A stretch of 64,000 bases of DNA, taken from positions 1 to 64,000 of the forward strand of contig CAZBZN010000001.1 in assembly GCA_964496415.1 (NCBI GenBank), in the 5' to 3' direction. Source of the DNA: Candidatus Micrarchaeota archaeon (GTDB lineage: Archaea > B1Sed10-29 > JAJRYS01). The notes beneath the pieces were generated by a model. That model was given only the letters and a program-made list of their open reading frames with translations. It was not told the DNA's origin and made no database searches. Positions 5,302 through 59,992 of this stretch are shown in pieces; the stretch's first letter is position 1; every line of letters starts with the position of its first letter. The translations under genes and the position numbers were made by a program.

Positions 5302-8300
5302 TTAAATGAAGTCAGCAAGAGAGGCTTGTGCTTTGTCTTCTTGTTCTTCTTCACTGCTTTTGAAAATTTCCTCAATATCTGTTTCTATTAGTTTCAGCCT
5401 CTGCTTTAAGTAATCTGTTAAATTGTATTTTTCAGCTATCTCTTGGGATACTTTTAAGTATTTTTCAATCCCACCTTTATGAATTGTTAAAATTATTTTT
5501 CCACCGCACTTCGTGCATTTTCCAACCAATGGAACCCTCCGGTATTTTGCATTGCAGTCAACGCAACGGAATAATTGTTGTCCAAAAGAACGTAAGTTAC
5601 CATAAATATCTCTTAAAAAGTGTGAGTTTATCACTTTTTCAGCCACGTCTTTTTCATCCACTGCTCTTATTTTTTCAGCAAGTTGAAGTTGTTTTTCAAC
5701 TTTTTCAGCCATTGTCTTTATTTTGCTATAAGAAGTCATTGAGGGGCCTTCGTCAATTTGTTTAGTGTCAAACATGAAGTCAATTCCTTCAAGGGCTTTT
5801 CTTGTTCCAAGAAAGTCTTTTATGATGGGGATGTGGGTTTTTATTTTTGAGTTTTGTGATTCTTCATAGAATTCTATTGGAAGCTTGCATGTTTCAATGT
5901 CATGTGCTTGGTCATCAACTTCTTCTGGCCTTAAAGTTATTGTCAATACGGATATTACGTCTTCTGTTCCTCCTGGTTTTTCTGGAATGTACTTTCTTGA
6001 AAAGTTTATCAAAGCATCAAGGAGAAGCACGACTGAGTTTTCATCGCCATCACAGTCTCTTCTTGTGGCGCAATGCATTAATGGATGAGCATAAAGTCCT
6101 CTTGCCTTTGAGAATCCAACTATTCTTCCAAGAATACCTGCAGAAATATGCGGCGCCATTTCAACAACCAAATGCCCTATTAAGTCTTCTTTTTTCTTCA
6201 CGTTATAAAAGGCTGGAAGCCCGTATACTTTTTCCAGCATTTCGTCAATGAACTGACTTACTCTTACAAAATAGTCAGCAGCAGCTTCTGGAATAACAAT
6301 ATCCTGCGGGAATAACTCAACTACTTGGTCTTCTCTTTCAAGTTTTTCACCAATATAATCAGTTTCATACCCCAATTCCCTTAGTTTTTCTACACTTACG
6401 TTTATCTCGTAAGGTTTGAAATGGGTTAATGGAAGGTTAGTAGCATCAAACCTTGAAGTAGCATCTTTAAAACAGAAGACGTTATGCGCTGCTCTTAAGA
6501 AAGCTTTTTCTAATGGTTCAAAATACTTTTCAGCGTTAGTAGTTCCTATGACCCCTTTTACTTTTTCAGGTACTGAAATACCTTTTTTCCTGAGTTGCTC
6601 TATTGCTTTTTTTAAGTTTATTATTTTCTTTTTGTAAGGTAATGTTTTACCCCCACACTTTGGACATGTTTCTGAGTCACTTACTGCCCCGCATTTAGAA
6701 CAGATTCTTCTTATCAAAGCTCTTTCATTACACTCAGGGCACTTGTAACTCATTAATTCTTTACCACATTTAGGGCAGACCAAAAAAGGAGCGTCCACTA
6801 TTATTTTTTCATTTTCAGCTGCTTTTATTATGTTCCTCATTTTGCCGCCATAATCCCTTACTGGGAACAATCCATGCACTGGAGGGCTCATTTTTCTTTC
6901 TTTTGCTTTTTCAGGCCTCCCCATTCTTGTTCCAATGTAACAAGTGCTCTTTTTGTAAATTTTAAACCCTGCAAGCTTGTTAACAAAGTCCATAGAGTCC
7001 TTTGCTTGTTCAAATACTTTTCTTATTTCTTCTTCTGGTTTTTTTATTCCCAAGCTTTCGATTAGAGGCTCACAGTCTTCAATTATTACAAACTCATCTC
7101 TTAGTTTATGAGGTACACAGAGAAGCTCAAGGATTCTTTTTTCCTCACTCACTCTCACAGCCAGTCTTTTTTTCACCCCTTCAAAACTTTCAATTTCTTC
7201 TACCTCTCCTTTTTTAAGCCAGAAAATGAGTTTTAGCAAGTCTTCTTTTGACACATCATGGTAGAAATAAGTGAATTTTGGATGAAGTGGAAGGCCTCTT
7301 TCTTTTGAAAGTTTCAAGGCTTCATCAGAAGTAATCTGCCAAGCATTTGTTTTTATTCCTTTACTCTCAGCGATCATCTGCCACCATTCCTCACAAATAG
7401 GGGAAGGAATTATAGGGTGATTCGCGTTAATGAAATCCCCATAACTCACAAGCATATCCCCTAAAAATAAAATTTCTTCTATTTCTTCTCTTACTCTTGC
7501 TGCTTTTTCGACGTTATCAACAATGATTACATCACCATTCTTCAACCTTACTACTGGCGGTTCTATTGAGTCACATGGTACTACAGCACAGCCTTTCTTA
7601 GGACGTTCAACTTTGAACTGTGTTCCGACAGCAGGGAATTCATCAAGCACGTACATTGCAGCAGGATGAATCGCTCTTGCGTTTATCCCAGTGTTCCTAG
7701 CACGCCCATACCTTAACCTAAACCCTCCAGGTCTTGAAGGATAAGAAAAAATCGGCCTACCGCCTACTACTTCTTTTAAATACTTGTCAATAGGCTTTAT
7801 TTCTTCTTTTTCAGAAGAAGTTTTTGTTATTTTCACTAAGCCTTCAAGCCAATCCCAGCCAAGCTCAAGTTTTTTTGAAATCTTCAAAAGCTTCGGAGCT
7901 TTTTGTGCAAGGGACTCAGCCATTACTAAGCACATTCCACCCCTCACTTTGTTAGTAGGCACTCTTTTCAGGTTTCTGTTAACACTTACTTCAACTTGTG
8001 AAGTGCTATCACCAGTAACACAAACAGGACAGTTTTTAACTATGTGCCTGATGTCTTCTTCTTTTGGAAGATACTGAAGCCTTGAAATAGCGCTGTTATA
8101 AAGGAAGATTTCTTCAACGTACCTGTCTATTTCTTTTTCAGTTGGCTTATACCTGTCAAGCCCTAGTTTTTTCCTCACGTAATCAGCCAGCATTGCAGCA
8201 TAACCGCCAGCAGTACCCCCTGCAGACCTTATCGGGCTCGCGAAGAATATTGCTAAGTATTTTGAGCCGTCTTCATTTTCCTGGATTTCAACCCTGCTTA

Positions 8301-21651: not shown

Positions 21652-21665
21652 TTTTATCCCTCTTT

Positions 21666-21711
21666 AACGCGTCAGGCACGGGCTTGTTTGGACCCGTCCT
21701 CTTCCCGCGTT
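21666..21711 (-). promoter_or_regulatory. Candidate ribosomal-protein leader upstream of rps15
   Basis: Nested stems AACGCG/CGCGTT, AGG/CCT and ACGGG/CCCGT in an otherwise AT-rich UTR. Confidence 0.55.
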
Positions 21712-21793
21712 TTGAACTTAATTAGAAACAACCCTATTTAAAGGGTAGAATTGTAGTGTTATTTTATTATTTGGGGTTTATAAAAGCTTCGTT

Positions 21794-37444: not shown

Positions 37445-37479
37445 AATACCACTCAGTATTTTTAGTCGCTTGTTGCTTT

Positions 37480-37540
37480 CAGGCGATTGAGAACCACGTT
37501 AGTGGTTCGATGTCGCCTGCCCGCAAGCCGTATGCGGCTC
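37480..37540. repeat. tRNA-trailing double-hairpin repeat, diverged copy B
   Basis: CAGGCGAT-TGA-GAACCAC-GTTA-GTGGTTC-GAT-GTCGCCTG plus AGCCG-TATG-CGGCT. Confidence 0.85.
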
Positions 37541-37603
37541 TAGGGGATTGAGAACCACGTTAGTGGTTCGAACATCCCCTGTCCGTAAACCGCACGCGGT
37601 TTA
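37541..37603. repeat. tRNA-trailing double-hairpin repeat, copy A
   Basis: 63 bp identical to 40094-40156; abuts the tRNA-Leu discriminator. Confidence 0.92.
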
Positions 37604-37741
37604 TGCAGGGGACGAGATTTGAACTCGCGTGGGCACTAAGCCACAGGGCCCTCAACCCTGCCCGTTTTCCGGGAGGCCCCGCCTCTTATTACTTTTATTA
37701 ACAGGAGGCAGGGGCCACCGTCCAGGCTCCGGCACCCCTGC
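37604..37741 (-). tRNA. tRNA-Leu(GAG) with a ~53-nt D-loop intron (about 37667-37719)
   Basis: GCAGGGG/CCCCTGC acceptor, CAGGG-TT-GAG-GG-CCCTG anticodon arm, long variable arm, TTCAAAT T-loop; BHB-like CTGG/CCGG helix; usual position between rpoD and rpl18e. Confidence 0.9.
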
Positions 37742-37808
37742 GTAGTTTTCATAGCATAGGGGTTGCGGGGAAGCTTTGCTTACCCAAGTACCCCTGCATA
37801 GTAATCCA

Positions 37809-38375
37809 TTATAACTGTTTTTCAAGCTCTTCAGCTTTTTCTTTTAATATTTCTACTGCTTTTTTAAGCAGTTCTTTTGGTTCAAGGTTTCCAAATGATT
37901 CTATTTCAAAGTCAAAGTTGTTTTCATTGGTTTTATGAACATTATATGATGCAATGCATGGTTGGAATTTAGCATGCTGTTTTCCAGTTCCCATTATTGC
38001 TGTGGCTTCAAGTCTTAGGTTTTGTTCTTCTCCTAACTTTATTATTGGTATGTTGTCATACACTGGCTTTACGTTTGATTTTGTTTTTAAGTCTTTTGAA
38101 TAGACCACTGTTGGCCCTTTTGCTTCAAGGTGAAATGTGGCTTTTGATTTTGAGGTTGCTGTTTTAGGAGTTACGAGGGGGATTAGCCCAAGTCTATGAG
38201 CTATGAACTCGTCAAAAAGGTTTGAAGTGTTTTCAAAAAAGTCCACTTCATCTATTGCCATTATTGGTACTTCTGACATTAATGCCCTTCTAAGTGCGTT
38301 TGCTTTTGGGTACGAAGCTTCTTTTAAAGTGAATTTCAAGTAATTCCCATCAACTTTTAAGTTCTCTATTTTCAT
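37809..38375 (-). CDS. rpoD: RNA polymerase subunit Rpo3 (D), short form
   Basis: ANALRRALMSEVP, ENTSNLFDEFIAHRLGLIP, HAKFQP. Confidence 0.94.
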   Translation of the reverse strand: MKIENLKVDGNYLKFTLKEASYPKANALRRALMSEVPIMAIDEVDFFENTSNLFDEFIAHRLGLIPLVTPKTATSKSKATFHLEAKGPTVVYSKDLKTKSNVKPVYDNIPIIKLGEEQNLRLEATAIMGTGKQHAKFQPCIASYNVHKTNENNFDFEIESFGNLEPKELLKKAVEILKEKAEELEKQL

Positions 38376-38385
38376 TTTTCATCAC

Positions 38386-38781
38386 TTATACTCTTCTTCC
38401 TCTTTTCCCACCTTTTCTTCTTGTAGTGTCATGAGGAATAGGAGTGACGTCTTCAATTCTTCCTATTCTAAGCCCGCTTCTTGCAAGAGCTCTAATTGCT
38501 GCTTGGGCTCCTTGTCCAGGAATTTTTGACCTATGACCACCAGGAGCTCTTACATGAATGTGAACTCCTACTACTCCTTTGTTTTTAAGTTCTTCAGCTA
38601 CTCTTTGAGCAGCCATCATTGCAGCGTAAGGTGAACCTTCTTTTCTATCAGCGTCAACCACCATTCCTCCAGAGCATTTTGCCAGAGTTTCTGCTCCTGT
38701 CAAATCAGTAACAGTAATTATAGTGTTATTCTTTGAAGCATAAATGTGTGCTATTCCCCACAGTTCTTCTTTCATTTTCAT
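38386..38781 (-). CDS. rps11: 30S ribosomal protein uS11
   Basis: [28 protein letters not shown]. Confidence 0.97.
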
Positions 38782-39413
38782 TCACCTAAATTTTCAGCTG
38801 CTTCTTTCAGTTCTTCTTCCTCTTTTTCAGCGAGTTCCTGTTCTTTTTCCATGATTTCTTTTTCTTCTTCTTTTTCCACTTCTTTTGCAATTACTTCTAA
38901 TCCTGTTTCCTGCTTTGGTTCTTCAATTGCTATTTTTAAAGGTTCCTTATACCAGCCAACAGTTTTTTCAGTTTCAAGGTCAATGATCATTGAAGGAGCA
39001 GTAGTCTTTATCCCATTGACAGCAATATGCCCGTGAGTTATAAATTGTCTTGCTTGTTTTATTGTTCTCGCAAGACCCTTTTTCCATACGATTGTTTGAA
39101 GCCTTCTTTTTAACAAGTCTTCTGTTTTTAATGATAAAACATCATCAAGGCTGCTGTTTTCAGGAAGAATTCCATATCTTTCAAGTTTATTAAGTAAAGC
39201 TTTTTCTTTTTCTTCTCTTTCTTCAGGAGCAAGCCCAACCAGTTCTCTAGCCATGTGCCTGTACTTTCTTATTTGAGTTTTAGCTCTCCAGATTTCTTTT
39301 TTGTTTTTTAACCCATACTCTTTCATTAGTTTCTTTTCTTCTAAGATTCTTTCTTTCTCCCAAGGATGTGATGGAGGTTCATATTTTTTCTTTAGTCTTC
39401 TCGGATCTCCCAT
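38778..39413 (-). CDS. rps4: 30S ribosomal protein uS4
   Basis: [31 protein letters not shown]; acidic tail. Confidence 0.96.
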
Positions 39414-39423
39414 TTTCAATCAC

Positions 39424-39909
39424 TTATTTTTTCTTTTTAGCAGGCTGCTGTTTTTTCCTTTGCACTCCTACGGTTACTCCTGTTCTTCCCATTGTTCTTG
39501 TTCTCTGCCCTCTTACTGGCAGTCCAAACATGTGTCTTACTCCTCTGTATGAACGCATGTTCATTTCTCTTTTCTTGTCATTTTGAATGGCAAATTCAAG
39601 ATCTGAACCAACTAAATGAATATCTCTTCCACTTTCAAAGTCCTTTCTTCTATTAAGCATCCATGTTGGAATGCCAAATTCTCCAGGAGAAGCTATTATC
39701 TTTTCTAATTTTTCTAATTGTTCATCAGAAAGATAACCTATTTTTGTGGACTTTTTAACTCCTTCTGTTTTTTCAAATTCCCCAGCTATTGCTTCCGCTA
39801 ACCTTTGTCCTATTCCTTTAACCATTCTTAAGGCTTTTATCATGTCGTAGTTTCCATCAACTTCGTAGCCTGAAAGCCTTAATCTTCCCTTGAATTCTGC
39901 TTCAGTCAT
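39424..39909 (-). CDS. rps13: 30S ribosomal protein uS13
   Basis: KGIG, WMLNRRKD, GLPVRGQRTR. Confidence 0.96.
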   Translation of the reverse strand: MTEAEFKGRLRLSGYEVDGNYDMIKALRMVKGIGQRLAEAIAGEFEKTEGVKKSTKIGYLSDEQLEKLEKIIASPGEFGIPTWMLNRRKDFESGRDIHLVGSDLEFAIQNDKKREMNMRSYRGVRHMFGLPVRGQRTRTMGRTGVTVGVQRKKQQPAKKKK

Positions 39910-39933
39910 TCATTCACCAGAATTTTTTATTTC

Positions 39934-39965
39934 CCTGTAGGTCACAGCCTTAGCGGCTCGCCAGG
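39934..39965 (-). promoter_or_regulatory. Candidate k-turn in the 5' leader of the rps13-rps4-rps11-rpoD operon
   Basis: TGGC-GA-GCC-GCTAA-GGC-TGT-GA-CCTA; TTTATAA box at about 40010-40016. Confidence 0.55.
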
Positions 39966-40039
39966 ATTTGGTTTTTTATAACAAGTGTTATGATTTGTGA
40001 ACTCTTTTGTTTATAAACCTTATGGAAACAGCCGCACCA

Positions 40040-40093
40040 CTGGGTTGAGGTCCGTAGGACCGAAGTCCTGTAAATGCAGGCTTTTTGAAGCCT
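40040..40093. repeat. Degenerate copy D of the tRNA-trailing repeat
   Basis: TTGA-GGTCC-GTA-GGACC-GAA plus AGGCTT-TTTG-AAGCCT: same architecture, different stem sequences. Confidence 0.5.
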
Positions 40094-40156
40094 TAGGGGA
40101 TTGAGAACCACGTTAGTGGTTCGAACATCCCCTGTCCGTAAACCGCACGCGGTTTA
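40094..40156. repeat. tRNA-trailing double-hairpin repeat, copy C
   Basis: Identical to 37541-37603; 1 nt from the tRNA-Ser discriminator. Confidence 0.92.
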
Positions 40157-40157
40157 A

Positions 40158-40325
40158 CGCGGCGGGGGAGATTCGAACTCCCGTGCCCCGAAGGGCACCA
40201 GCTCTCCAGGCTCACCTCACTTTGTTTAAGTTCACTTTTTAAGCAAAGTGAACTGGCGCAATACCATTGCACCCACAAGGGTGCAAACCAAATGGCTTGC
40301 CATTTGTGGTCTATGCGACCGCCGC
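40158..40325 (-). tRNA. tRNA-Ser(GGA) with two introns: 15/16 (40267-40310) and 30/31 (40211-40252)
   Basis: GCGGCGG/CCGCCGC acceptor, G73, TTCGAAT, variable arm TGCCC-TTCG-GGGCA; removing both BHB introns restores the AGTGGTA D-loop and CCAGC-CT-GGA-GA-GCTGG (82-nt mature tRNA). Confidence 0.92.
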
Positions 40326-50940: not shown

Positions 50941-51786
50941 TCACTTATGCACTCTCTTATGAGCTGAGAGCCCTCTTTTGGAATTAAACTCTTTTCCACA
51001 GATCTCACATTTGAACACTTGCTTTTTTTCAGTTTCTTCAGCTATCTCTTTTATTACTTCCTTTGCAGTTTCTTTTTCAGGTTTTTCAGGAATCACTTCT
51101 TCACTTAGCTCTTTTATTCCTGTTTCTTTTATTTCTTCAGCTGCTTTCTTTTCTTCAGGAAGCACTGTTGTTTCTTCAGCTATCTCTTCTATGCCTGGTT
51201 TTTGAATTTCGATTTTGTCAGGGAATTTAAGTTCTCTTGGAACAATTCTAACAGTTATCCCAATTACTCCTTGTTTTAGGAAAGCCTGCATTTTTGTTTC
51301 TTTTATCTGATTAACAGGATCACCTGCTTTTTTCAAATAGCCTCTTGCTACTCTTTCTTTTCTTGATCTTGCTCCTTTACTTTGAGTACCATCAGCTATT
51401 ATTTCAACACCTATGGCTCCAGCATCCATTACTCTTTTTGCAGCTTTTTTAATTGCTATTCTTGGTTTTGTTCCTCTTTCAATCATTCTTTTTACCCATC
51501 TTGCGATTACTGTTGGTTCAAGGTCTGGGTTTTGTACTTCAATAACTTCAAGTTGAGGATTTTCTATTCCAAGTTCTTTTTCAAGTCTTTCGTTAAGTTC
51601 TTTTATGTTTGACCCTTTTCTTCCAATTACTAATGCTATTCTTTCAGCTATTATTCCTATTCTTGTTGAGATAGGGGTTCTTTGAATTTCAACGTCAACT
51701 ATTCCGGCTCTTTCTAATTCTTTTTTTATGAATTCCCTTGTCTTAAGTCTTTTTACTGCTTCTTCAACGAATTTTCTTTCAATCAT
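50941..51786 (-). CDS. rps3: 30S ribosomal protein uS3 with acidic linker and C-terminal C2H2 zinc finger
   Basis: KH domain (VIGRKG), GAIGVEI, GVIGITVRI; tail FKCEICGKEFNSKRGLSAHKRVH. Confidence 0.94.
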   Translation of the reverse strand: MIERKFVEEAVKRLKTREFIKKELERAGIVDVEIQRTPISTRIGIIAERIALVIGRKGSNIKELNERLEKELGIENPQLEVIEVQNPDLEPTVIARWVKRMIERGTKPRIAIKKAAKRVMDAGAIGVEIIADGTQSKGARSRKERVARGYLKKAGDPVNQIKETKMQAFLKQGVIGITVRIVPRELKFPDKIEIQKPGIEEIAEETTVLPEEKKAAEEIKETGIKELSEEVIPEKPEKETAKEVIKEIAEETEKKQVFKCEICGKEFNSKRGLSAHKRVHK

Positions 51787-58128: not shown

Positions 58129-59556
58129 TCATCCTTTAATACAGCCTATTGGTCTTACTCTTACTACTTTTTTAGCTAACCCGGCATTGTGCACTGCGTC
58201 AACTACTTCTGCTACGTCCTTGTAAGCTTCAGGAGCTTCTTCAGCTACTCCTGCGTAAGAATGTGCTTTAACTATGATTCCTTTTTCCCTTAGTCTGCGG
58301 ATTATTTCCTCTCCTCTCCAGGAATGTTTTGCTTTTGTCCTGCTCATTCTTCTTCCACCGCCATGGCAAGCGCTTCCAAAAGTCTTACTGGTTCCGGTTT
58401 CTGTTCCAACTAATATGTAAGAGTATGTTCCCATGCTTCCTCCTATGAGTACTGGTTGTCCTACTTCCATGTAATCTTTTGGCAATTCTTTCCTGCCAGG
58501 ACCAAAAGCTCTAGTAGCTCCTTTTCTATGAACATAAAGTTTTCTCTTCTCCCCGTCAACGTCATGCTCTTCTATCTTGCACGTGTTATGTGAGATATCA
58601 TAAAGTGTTTCCACTTTTGCTTCTGGAAGTACTTTTTCAAAAGCAGTCCTTGCCAAGTGAGCTATTACTTGCCTGTTCGCTAACGCGCAGTTTATTCCAG
58701 CATTCATTGCACCCCAGTAATCCTGTCCTTCTTTTGATTTTATAGGAGCACATACGAGTTCCCTGTCCCTTATAGGAATCCCGTACTTTTTTGAAGCCTG
58801 CGCAAGGATTGGAAGGTAATCCATTCCTATCTGATGCCCAAGAGCTCTTGAACCACAGTGAAATGATATTAAGACATCTCCTTTTTCCACTTTGAACACT
58901 TTTGCTGTTTTTTCATCAAACACTTCATCAACTACTTGAATTTCTAAGTAGTGGTTTCCTGAACCAAGAGTCCCTACTTGCTTGTACTGCCTTTTTTTTG
59001 CTTTGTGTGATACTTTTGAAGCATCAGCTCCGTCAACTCTGCCGAATTCTTCTATGAATTCAAGGTCTCTTTTTGTCCCATACCCTTGTTCAACAGCCCA
59101 AACAGCTCCTCCTTCTAGCACTTCATCAATTCCCTGTTCAGTTAGCTTTATTTCACCAGTGCTTCCAAGACCAGCAGGTACTGTTCTAAACAATTCGTTT
59201 ACTACCTCCTCTATTTTTTCCTTTACTTGTTCTTCTTTCAGGCCAGTCCTCATTGTTCTTACTCCGCAAGAAATGTCAAACCCTACTCCTCCTACTGAAA
59301 GTATTCCTTCATCTTCGTCAAAAGCACCTACTCCTCCTATTGGGAAACCGTACCCCCAGTGAGCGTCAGGCATTGCCATTGCTGCTTTAACAATGCCTGG
59401 AAGGCTTGCCACGTTCATGAGTTGTTCTCTTACTTTTTCATCCATTTCTGTAACTAGTTTCTCGTCAGCGTAAATCCTTGCAGGAACATTCATTTCACCA
59501 GTTTTTTCAATTTCCCATTCATAGTCACTTATCTTTTTCAAAGCTTTAATATCCAC
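58129..59556 (-). CDS. rtcB: RNA-splicing ligase RtcB
   Basis: MPDAHWGYGFPIG, DISCG, GSGNHYLE, HRKGAT, ACHG, EEAPEAYK; no intein. Confidence 0.97.
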   Translation of the reverse strand: MDIKALKKISDYEWEIEKTGEMNVPARIYADEKLVTEMDEKVREQLMNVASLPGIVKAAMAMPDAHWGYGFPIGGVGAFDEDEGILSVGGVGFDISCGVRTMRTGLKEEQVKEKIEEVVNELFRTVPAGLGSTGEIKLTEQGIDEVLEGGAVWAVEQGYGTKRDLEFIEEFGRVDGADASKVSHKAKKRQYKQVGTLGSGNHYLEIQVVDEVFDEKTAKVFKVEKGDVLISFHCGSRALGHQIGMDYLPILAQASKKYGIPIRDRELVCAPIKSKEGQDYWGAMNAGINCALANRQVIAHLARTAFEKVLPEAKVETLYDISHNTCKIEEHDVDGEKRKLYVHRKGATRAFGPGRKELPKDYMEVGQPVLIGGSMGTYSYILVGTETGTSKTFGSACHGGGRRMSRTKAKHSWRGEEIIRRLREKGIIVKAHSYAGVAEEAPEAYKDVAEVVDAVHNAGLAKKVVRVRPIGCIKG

Positions 59557-59575
59557 AGGACTCCCTCCTTAAGAC

Positions 59576-59992
59576 TCATACGTCAACAATGCATTGAGCA
59601 ATCCAATGATCATTTGTTTTCTCAACTTTTACCTGTGAGTAAGTGGCTGCTTTTACTTCTGTCTTAGGATGGTGCTTTTCAGGGTTAAATTCTTCTCCGA
59701 GAGCGATAGCGGTTAGTTTGTTATCGTTTATGGTTACTTTAAAATCTTTGAAGACAATTCCTTCTAAGTCCATTTCTGTAAGCAGCTCGTTGAGGAATGA
59801 TACGAGAAGACTTTCAAGGTCTGTTGACTCGCAGGTTATTTTTATTTCTTTGCAGGGGGTTATGTTTTCTAAGTCAAACATTATTGAAAACATTGCCTTG
59901 GCACATTCAGTAAAAGCTTCTTCAACTGTTTTTCCAATTCCTCTTACTCCTATGTCAGCAGTGTGTTCAAAAGTTTCGAACAACTTACTCAC
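59576..59992 (-). CDS. Archease (RtcB cofactor)
   Basis: FEHTADIG, EVKAATY, C-terminal VDV; adjacent to rtcB. Confidence 0.94.
   Translation of the reverse strand: MSKLFETFEHTADIGVRGIGKTVEEAFTECAKAMFSIMFDLENITPCKEIKITCESTDLESLLVSFLNELLTEMDLEGIVFKDFKVTINDNKLTAIALGEEFNPEKHHPKTEVKAATYSQVKVEKTNDHWIAQCIVDV

Follow-up and report, generated by a model that had tools for sequence, protein, structure and literature searches.

A structured two-hairpin repeat unit directly behind two tRNA genes of a Micrarchaeota archaeon

In the first 64,000 nucleotides of contig CAZBZN010000001.1 from a Candidatus Micrarchaeota archaeon (assembly GCA_964496415.1; this whole stretch is called "the window" below), the genes for tRNA-Leu(GAG) and tRNA-Ser(GGA) are each followed by a tandem pair of short repeat units. 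We found that the two tRNA-proximal units are identical at all 63 positions, that they begin 0 or 1 nt past the discriminator base of their tRNA, and that the pairing of their two hairpins is retained in the diverged copies behind them. The reading that we favor, while holding it to be somewhat short of probable, is that the units are a structure-constrained RNA module of ~57-63 nt, made of two hairpins and located in the tRNA 3' trailers of this genome. For DPANN archaea, very little is known of how RNA is processed or of which non-coding RNAs exist, and hardly any Micrarchaeota have been cultivated. The 63-nt sequence, its covariance model and the two loci constitute a small, concrete object with which to study the punctuation between tRNA genes and ribosomal-protein operons. 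Should the trailer-module reading be correct, it would supply a second case, after Nanoarchaeum, of tRNAs serving as processing handles in reduced genomes.

We refer to the tRNA-proximal units as A1 (behind tRNA-Leu) and A2 (behind tRNA-Ser), to their common sequence as A, and to the diverged units that follow them as B1 and B2 (Table 1). The bases adjoining the identical stretch differ (C at 37540, T at 40093). Sequence comparison and spliced tRNA models confirm what the first-pass annotation of this DNA had claimed, namely that one 63-bp element abuts both tRNA genes and that a diverged copy stands in tandem behind each; only the extent of B2, given there as 40040-40093, has been adjusted, and the unit lies directly beside A2. 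The window contains three occurrences of a 26-nt core (in A1, in A2 and at 37485-37510), against none in 100 shuffles, and a core of 26-30 nt in B1 is identical to A. A covariance model was trained on A1, A2 and B1, with B2 left out, and was run unfiltered on both strands of the window with E-values of up to 10 accepted. Four of its 13 matches are the units themselves, all on the plus strand. Six lower matches overlap the same two loci (five on the strand opposite the units, one within tRNA-Ser), and the remaining three lie elsewhere in the window at E-values between 1.4 and 9.8. The same four units, along with nine background matches, were retrieved by a descriptor that had been written by hand to specify an outer stem, TGA, a hairpin, GA and the outer stem again; shuffled sequences give 1-8. 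The repeat family has four members in 64 kb, arranged as two tandem pairs.

All copies have an outer stem, a UGA/GA internal loop, an inner hairpin and a second hairpin, which bears out the two-hairpin architecture proposed for them earlier. Read on the plus strand, A1 comprises a 7-bp outer stem, a UGA/GAAC internal loop, a 7-bp inner hairpin with a 4-nt loop, a linker of 5-6 nt and a second hairpin of 6-7 bp. The order of parts is kept in B2: TTGAG, a 5-bp hairpin with a 3-nt loop, CGAA, and then the second hairpin. In all three distinct sequences (A, B1 and B2), the internal loop retains TGA on its 5' side and GA plus 1-2 bases on its 3' side. The layout of the two hairpins in A and B1 is identical on either strand, and on either strand these two sequences fold far better than shuffles (z about -5); B2 alone does not fold clearly better than its shuffles (z -1.65 and -1.70).

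Twenty modeled pairs were tabulated over the three distinct sequences. MAFFT misaligned B2, and a model-based alignment was used instead. Double compensatory changes are present in eight of the 20 pairs; B1, which aligns unambiguously, accounts for two of them and B2 for the remainder, though the counts for B2 are biased toward the model structure by this alignment. The two changes in B1 are those that the first-pass annotation had named: an outer-stem G-C pair has become C-G, and an A-U pair of the second hairpin has become G-C. One cell of the pairing table is broken (U.U in B2), and two are gaps, the inner stem of B2 being shorter. The eight compensatory pairs, the single broken cell and the z-scores of A and B1 argue that the structure is under selection.

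Both tRNA genes are real, and both have non-canonical introns. When given the raw window, ARAGORN returned a poor 82-nt model of tRNA-Leu with a weak acceptor stem and missed tRNA-Ser; the Rfam scan of the window reported no tRNA. Once the introns had been removed by coordinate, ARAGORN drew full cloverleaves with perfect 7-bp acceptor stems for both genes, with a possible error of 1-2 nt in the splice points. Standard tRNA finders thus miss these two intron-bearing genes. A T-arm scan of the window had three matches: the two tRNA genes and a site within the coding sequence of RtcB. All four units are at tRNA 3' ends, and both tRNA genes in the 64 kb carry a pair of units. By our own arithmetic, which assumes independence, the chance that both loci would fall in the ~0.4% of the window just 3' of a tRNA is about 1 in 60,000. 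The tRNA-splicing ligase pair, RtcB and archease, is encoded at 58132-59992. In Micrarchaeum, non-canonical tRNA introns and a splicing endonuclease of broad specificity have been described (PMC3239211, PMC3488258).

Table 1. Repeat units, tRNA genes and promoter-like boxes at the two loci (positions in the window)
Feature	Position	Strand	Remarks
Unit A1	37541-37603	.	adjoins tRNA-Leu discriminator (37604), gap 0 nt; covariance model 94.9 bits
Unit B1	37480-37540	.	diverged tandem copy; covariance model 80.7 bits
Unit A2	40094-40156	.	begins 1 nt past tRNA-Ser discriminator (40158); covariance model 94.9 bits
Unit B2	40038-40093	.	strongly diverged; covariance model 19.6 bits, rough E 0.008
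tRNA-Leu(GAG)	37604-37741	minus	exons 37741-37720 and 37668-37604; 51-nt D-loop intron (about 37669-37719); no CCA encoded
tRNA-Ser(GGA)	40158-40325	minus	exons 40325-40311, 40266-40253 and 40210-40158; 44-nt D-loop intron (40267-40310) and 42-nt anticodon-stem intron (40211-40252); no CCA encoded
Promoter-like box, A-rich B-recognition element (BRE) + TTTATAAA	40010-40024	minus	between B2 and S13, oriented to S13; assigned by likeness to the window's other boxes
Promoter-like TATA box	37808-37815	minus	putative; upstream of tRNA-Leu, overlaps rpoD stop codon; would give a leader of ~43 nt

The transcriptional setting was assessed by reading the sequences upstream of genes in the window, where a GTTTATAAG-like box, itself preceded by an A-rich stretch, recurs ~23-25 nt before the start codon. 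Between B1 and the start codon of L18e no promoter-like box is recognizable; that interval has only a Shine-Dalgarno-like stretch. On the minus (tRNA) strand, neither trailer has as many as four consecutive T, and an intrinsic or oligo-T terminator is thus not indicated; a T5 tract is found on the plus strand, in the loop of the second hairpin of B2. A scan of the window for bacterial-type promoters and terminators was uninformative for an archaeon. Because the minus strand lacks oligo-T and L18e lacks a promoter after B1, the simplest reading is that transcription continues from tRNA-Leu into L18e. Thus, tRNA-Leu, A1, B1 and the L18e operon would form one transcript, and a minus-strand RNA of A1-B1 should exist. 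Read-through into S13 at the Ser locus is possible, though not needed.

From the repeat, its conserved structure, its exact abutment to the tRNAs and the missing oligo-T, we infer minus-strand transcription, cleavage by tRNase Z, a stabilizing or small-RNA role and a mode of copying, which may be pictured as follows. The module would be transcribed on the minus strand together with the tRNA. A cut by tRNase Z after the discriminator would free the tRNA and would leave a downstream RNA that has its first hairpin 1-2 nt from the 5' end and three more closely packed hairpins behind it (four in total). A start of the unit 0 or 1 nt past the discriminator is exactly what a function linked to tRNase Z would require. 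The downstream RNA could be a stable, tRNA-linked small RNA; alternatively, it could provide a hairpin-capped 5' end and a structured spacer for the next ribosomal-protein mRNA, which at the Leu locus would be that of L18e-L13-S9-RpoN. Stem-loops at the 5' terminus stabilize bacterial mRNAs. The resemblance to these, a hairpin a few nt from a processed 5' end, is pure analogy, as such stem-loops are not known to act in this way in tRNA-linked operons of archaea.

The trailer-module reading further supposes that the module was copied whole behind at least two different tRNA genes, in the same position, and that the tRNA-proximal copy is the youngest. The identity of A1 and A2 is confined to one structural unit, from the tRNA end to the base of the outer stem, while the B flanks differ, and it therefore points to the copying of a discrete unit. 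Recent copying as a discrete piece is compatible with a trailer module, yet it is also the main argument for a mobile element. That the newest copy should be the one next to the tRNA had been suggested in the first-pass annotation; the pattern of identity agrees (A1 equals A2, and B1 is nearer to A than is B2), but it does not amount to proof.

The preference of the units for one strand is awkward for this reading. It had been claimed that everything favors the plus strand, which is antisense to the tRNAs. Minimum free energies as RNA (plus/minus strand, in kcal/mol) are -30.2/-28.8 for A, -33.2/-31.1 for B1 and -18.2/-16.0 for B2; with DNA parameters, they are -17.3/-16.4, -19.8/-19.4 and -9.0/-8.6, respectively. 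The plus strand is thus favored by 1.4-2.2 kcal/mol as RNA and by 0.4-0.9 kcal/mol as DNA. On that strand, tandem G.A pairs stand beside the inner stem, and the first hairpin has apical loops of the form G..A. In three cells of the pairing table, a pair is G.U on the plus strand and a mismatch on the minus strand, and in one cell the reverse is true. The claim is only weakly borne out: the direction of the energy difference, the G.A pairs, the loops and most wobbles agree with it, but the energetic margin is small, the wobbles split three to one, and the G.A pairs sit in a symmetric internal loop that forms no kink-turn. We consider the case for the plus strand suggestive, not decisive.

Several points weigh against a trailer module transcribed with the tRNA. 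The tandem G.A pairs, the G...A loops and three of the four wobbles are on the strand antisense to the tRNAs, and that is also the strand on which all three distinct copies fold better. The units have no C/D boxes, unlike the small RNA of Nanoarchaeum. S13 has a good promoter box downstream of B2, and a role in capping the 5' end of the mRNA is accordingly unneeded at the Ser locus. A purely structural role leaves the complete identity of A1 and A2 unexplained. Finally, the evidence consists of four copies in one 64-kb window, all of it from sequence.

Two known arrangements of tRNA-linked RNAs invite comparison. In Nanoarchaeum equitans, the gene for a C/D box small RNA (sRNA8) is directly downstream of tRNA-Val, and RNase Z is proposed to make the 5' end of the small RNA (PMC3491384). 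The likeness consists of a structured RNA immediately 3' of a tRNA and a 5' end that a cut by RNase Z would set; the host, too, is a DPANN archaeon. The tRNA-small nucleolar RNA genes of plants are similar in that a structured RNA stands directly behind a tRNA. The units differ from both of these dicistrons in having no C/D or C'/D' boxes on either strand, and in that one type of unit occurs behind two tRNAs and in tandem. A box C/D small RNA was rejected on the same grounds: neither RTGATGA nor TGATG is present on either strand at either locus, and a single CTGA (37482, minus strand) is at the edge of B1.

The units also recall the repetitive extragenic palindromes (REP) and the bacterial interspersed mosaic elements (BIME) built from them, which are short, GC-rich, imperfect palindromes, located between genes and after them, often paired, and with a structure that is kept in diverged copies. 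REP sequences are present in tens to hundreds of copies per genome, and the gene for a REP-associated tyrosine transposase (RAYT) is flanked by the palindromes. In contrast, the units lack a GTAG/GGAG head, number four in 64 kb, are all at tRNA 3' ends, have no RAYT-like gene in the window and belong to an archaeal host. No GTAG or GGAG precedes any unit; the sole GTAG, at 40054 on the plus strand, is in the apical loop of the first hairpin of B2, and there is no GGAG. The units resemble both tRNA-linked small RNAs and extragenic palindromic repeats, and appear to have the defining features of neither.

Other structured elements were considered and rejected. A kink-turn bound by L7Ae is suggested by the tandem GA/GA on the plus strand, but the internal loop is symmetric and has no one-sided 3-nt bulge; it has 3-4 extra nt on both strands, and these are able to pair (A-U, U.G and U.U in B1). 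A bulge-helix-bulge motif requires an offset of 4 bp, which is impossible on either strand, as the two halves of the internal loop lie squarely opposite one another. The structure offers no pocket of the H/ACA type, and it likewise speaks against a selenocysteine insertion sequence (SECIS) element and an attC-like site. A core like that of the hammerhead ribozyme is excluded by the two-way, not three-way, junction and by a core sequence unlike that of the ribozyme. Rfam 15 gave no match in the window at the gathering thresholds, none on the units at E-values of up to 10 and none on them in a whole-window search at up to 5, in keeping with the first-pass annotation, which had recognized no described family. 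We found no description of such an element in open-access papers and preprints.

The rival that comes nearest to the trailer module, although we think it rather unlikely, was the principal idea of the first-pass annotation: a non-autonomous mobile element that folds on the plus strand as single-stranded DNA or RNA, inserts precisely at tRNA 3' ends, stacks newer copies on the tRNA side and depends on an enzyme encoded elsewhere in the genome. It would account well for a block of identity that is exactly one unit with different flanks, for tandem units at two unrelated tRNA genes, for the graded divergence from A1 and A2 (identical) through B1 (80.7 bits) to B2 (19.6 bits), and for the tandem G.A pairs, G...A loops and three wobbles of the plus strand. 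If it were right, the element would target tRNA genes with single-nucleotide precision. However, none of the 82 open-reading-frame (ORF) translations of the window was identified by Pfam as a transposase, integrase, HUH nuclease or reverse transcriptase, and the prior report that the window holds no cognate enzyme is thus upheld. The diverged copies still pair, which suggests selection after insertion.

The specific form of this idea, an element of the IS200/IS605 insertion-sequence type, is not supported. The units do have a likeness to miniature elements derived from that group (PATE-type), whose features are hairpin units that carry no gene and that lack terminal inverted repeats and target duplications. 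They differ in that no target tetranucleotide is common to the four units, in that the first and the second hairpin of a unit are dissimilar, and in that no TnpA or TnpB gene is present in the window. On the plus strand, the units are preceded by the tetranucleotides GCTC, GCCT, CTTT and GCAC and followed by TGCA (A1), ACGC (A2) and TAGG (B1 and B2). Together with the missing GTAG/GGAG head, and with terminal inverted repeats and target duplications of which none was seen on reading the unit ends, this lack of a common target weighs against mobility generally. The context accords better with the other option raised in the first-pass annotation, namely a small RNA or a signal for processing of the tRNA trailer.

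Mobility of another kind might be imagined, in which the units would be an undescribed tRNA-targeting module of DPANN archaea, ~60 nt in length, copied precisely to a point 0-1 nt past the discriminator and layered with newer copies on the tRNA side. The route could involve the tRNase Z cut, ligation of RNA and copying back to DNA, or else a structure-specific nuclease acting on single strands. We judge this version unlikely.

Searches for relatives elsewhere add to the difficulties of a mobile element. Both strands of 185,579 representative genomes (596 Gb) were scanned for the exact core, with 20 specified bases, for which our own arithmetic predicts ~1 match by chance. There were two matches, at orthologous sites in Microbulbifer hainanensis and M. 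mangrovi, and we do not regard these bacterial sites as relatives: the outer stem is missing, the covariance model gives them 17.5 and 14.8 bits, their folding does not surpass that of shuffles, and no Rfam family matches them. A blastn search of B1+A1 against plasmids and phages found no match. Protein collections were also searched for the element as a spurious ORF translation; word-index searches with the minus-strand frames gave no candidate, and an exhaustive search with a 39-residue plus-strand frame gave five matches. These were rejected, since the four that were inspected are translations of unrelated tandem-repeat or CRISPR-like arrays with scores inflated by the repeats.

The Microbulbifer sites have features of their own. 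They are downstream of tRNA-Phe, by 231 nt in M. hainanensis and by 59 nt in M. mangrovi, an odd coincidence between what are probably unrelated sequences; the T-arm-like 3' half of the core may be a simple cause of it. In M. hainanensis, a block of ~170 nt around the core site is duplicated in tandem and has no significant fold.

A block of four hairpins could also act in cis, in the transcript or in the DNA, as a barrier that halts or attenuates read-through to the next operon or that shields the tRNA 3' end, with no separate RNA being made. The position between a tRNA and the next transcription unit would suit such a barrier, as would the S13 promoter box that follows at the Ser locus and the high stability of the hairpins on either strand; another stop signal is needed, moreover, because the tRNA strand has no oligo-T terminator. 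On the other hand, a full stop at the Leu locus would silence L18e-L13-S9-RpoN, given that no promoter for L18e is recognizable after B1. By the general view, it is oligo-T and not a hairpin that makes archaeal RNA polymerase terminate, which speaks against the barrier, and a barrier does not require that A1 and A2 be identical. We consider this explanation quite improbable.

The plus-strand features could instead reflect an independent gene for a small RNA of ~120 nt, reading B and then A and convergent with the tRNA. A palindromic TATA box at 40010-40017, which ends 23 nt before B2, could serve it. Yet the A-rich BRE of that box is on the S13 side, and only when read in the minus orientation does the box agree with the other promoters of the window. 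The only AT-rich box at the Leu locus would start transcription inside the outer stem of B1, the plus strand has no terminator behind A, and there is no reason why convergent genes should meet with a gap of just 0-1 nt. Such a gene is very unlikely.

It is barely credible that the units are what remains of integrase attachment sites, with tRNA 3' ends in duplicate, or an artefact of assembly: tRNA 3' ends are common targets of integration and the outer-stem arm of A has 6 nt in common with the acceptor arm of tRNA-Leu, but the units show no convincing likeness to the tRNAs, the best of 12 local-alignment tests of units against both tRNAs (B1 plus strand against Leu) was equaled in 2 of 500 shuffles, the aligned blocks were of 7-10 nt only in the three pairs displayed, one type of unit stands behind two tRNAs whose acceptor stems differ, the copies are separated by conserved ribosomal-protein genes, and a 63-bp repeat is presumably shorter than typical assembly k-mers and reads.

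The units belong to a Candidatus Micrarchaeota (DPANN) archaeon and lie in its conserved ribosomal-protein cluster. The SecY encoded in the window has relatives in Candidatus Micrarchaeota at ~68% identity, with a top match of 77%. Pfam annotation, which covered the 82 ORF translations, gives the gene order as SecY ... cytidylate kinase, L14e, Cbf5, tRNA-Ser, S13, S4, S11, RpoD, tRNA-Leu, L18e, L13, S9, RpoN, enolase, S2; PolD, Orc1/Cdc6, RtcB and archease are also encoded. The window is AT-rich (35.9% G+C), and its most prominent GC-rich islands, at 37475-37779 and 40018-40231, contain the two pairs of units.

The region upstream of tRNA-Leu has peculiarities that are separate from the repeat. 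The first 8 nt of the tRNA are duplicated 56 nt upstream on the minus strand (37797-37790 and 37741-37734), and the 48-nt segment between the duplicates (region 37742-37800) is GC-rich and folded (z -2.3). In a fold of the long pre-tRNA-Leu, a 10-bp helix joins the upstream copy to the 3' end of the tRNA and the first 2 nt of A1. The duplicate could be part of a leader-trailer helix or a scar left by an insertion, or it could mark an additional intron close to position 8. Leader-trailer pairing was rejected as a general explanation for the units, as nothing comparable to the pre-tRNA-Leu fold is seen at the Ser locus.

Four further observations concern other parts of the window. A weak Rfam match to the C/D box small RNA sR52 (5601-5664, minus strand; 22.1 bits, E 2.6) falls within the gene for the large subunit of PolD and is probably due to chance. 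A GC-rich hairpin with a large internal loop (21656-21719, minus strand; z about -2) is located in the 145-nt region upstream of the S15 gene, and may be a leader structure or a small RNA. Ribosomal protein S3 (50944-51786, minus strand) has a C-terminal zinc finger of the C2H2 type at residues 257-281 (Pfam E about 1e-5). Lastly, the genes for Orc1/Cdc6 and SepF (461-2115) diverge from a 98-nt AT-rich spacer with two opposed promoter-like boxes, which makes this a candidate replication-origin neighborhood.

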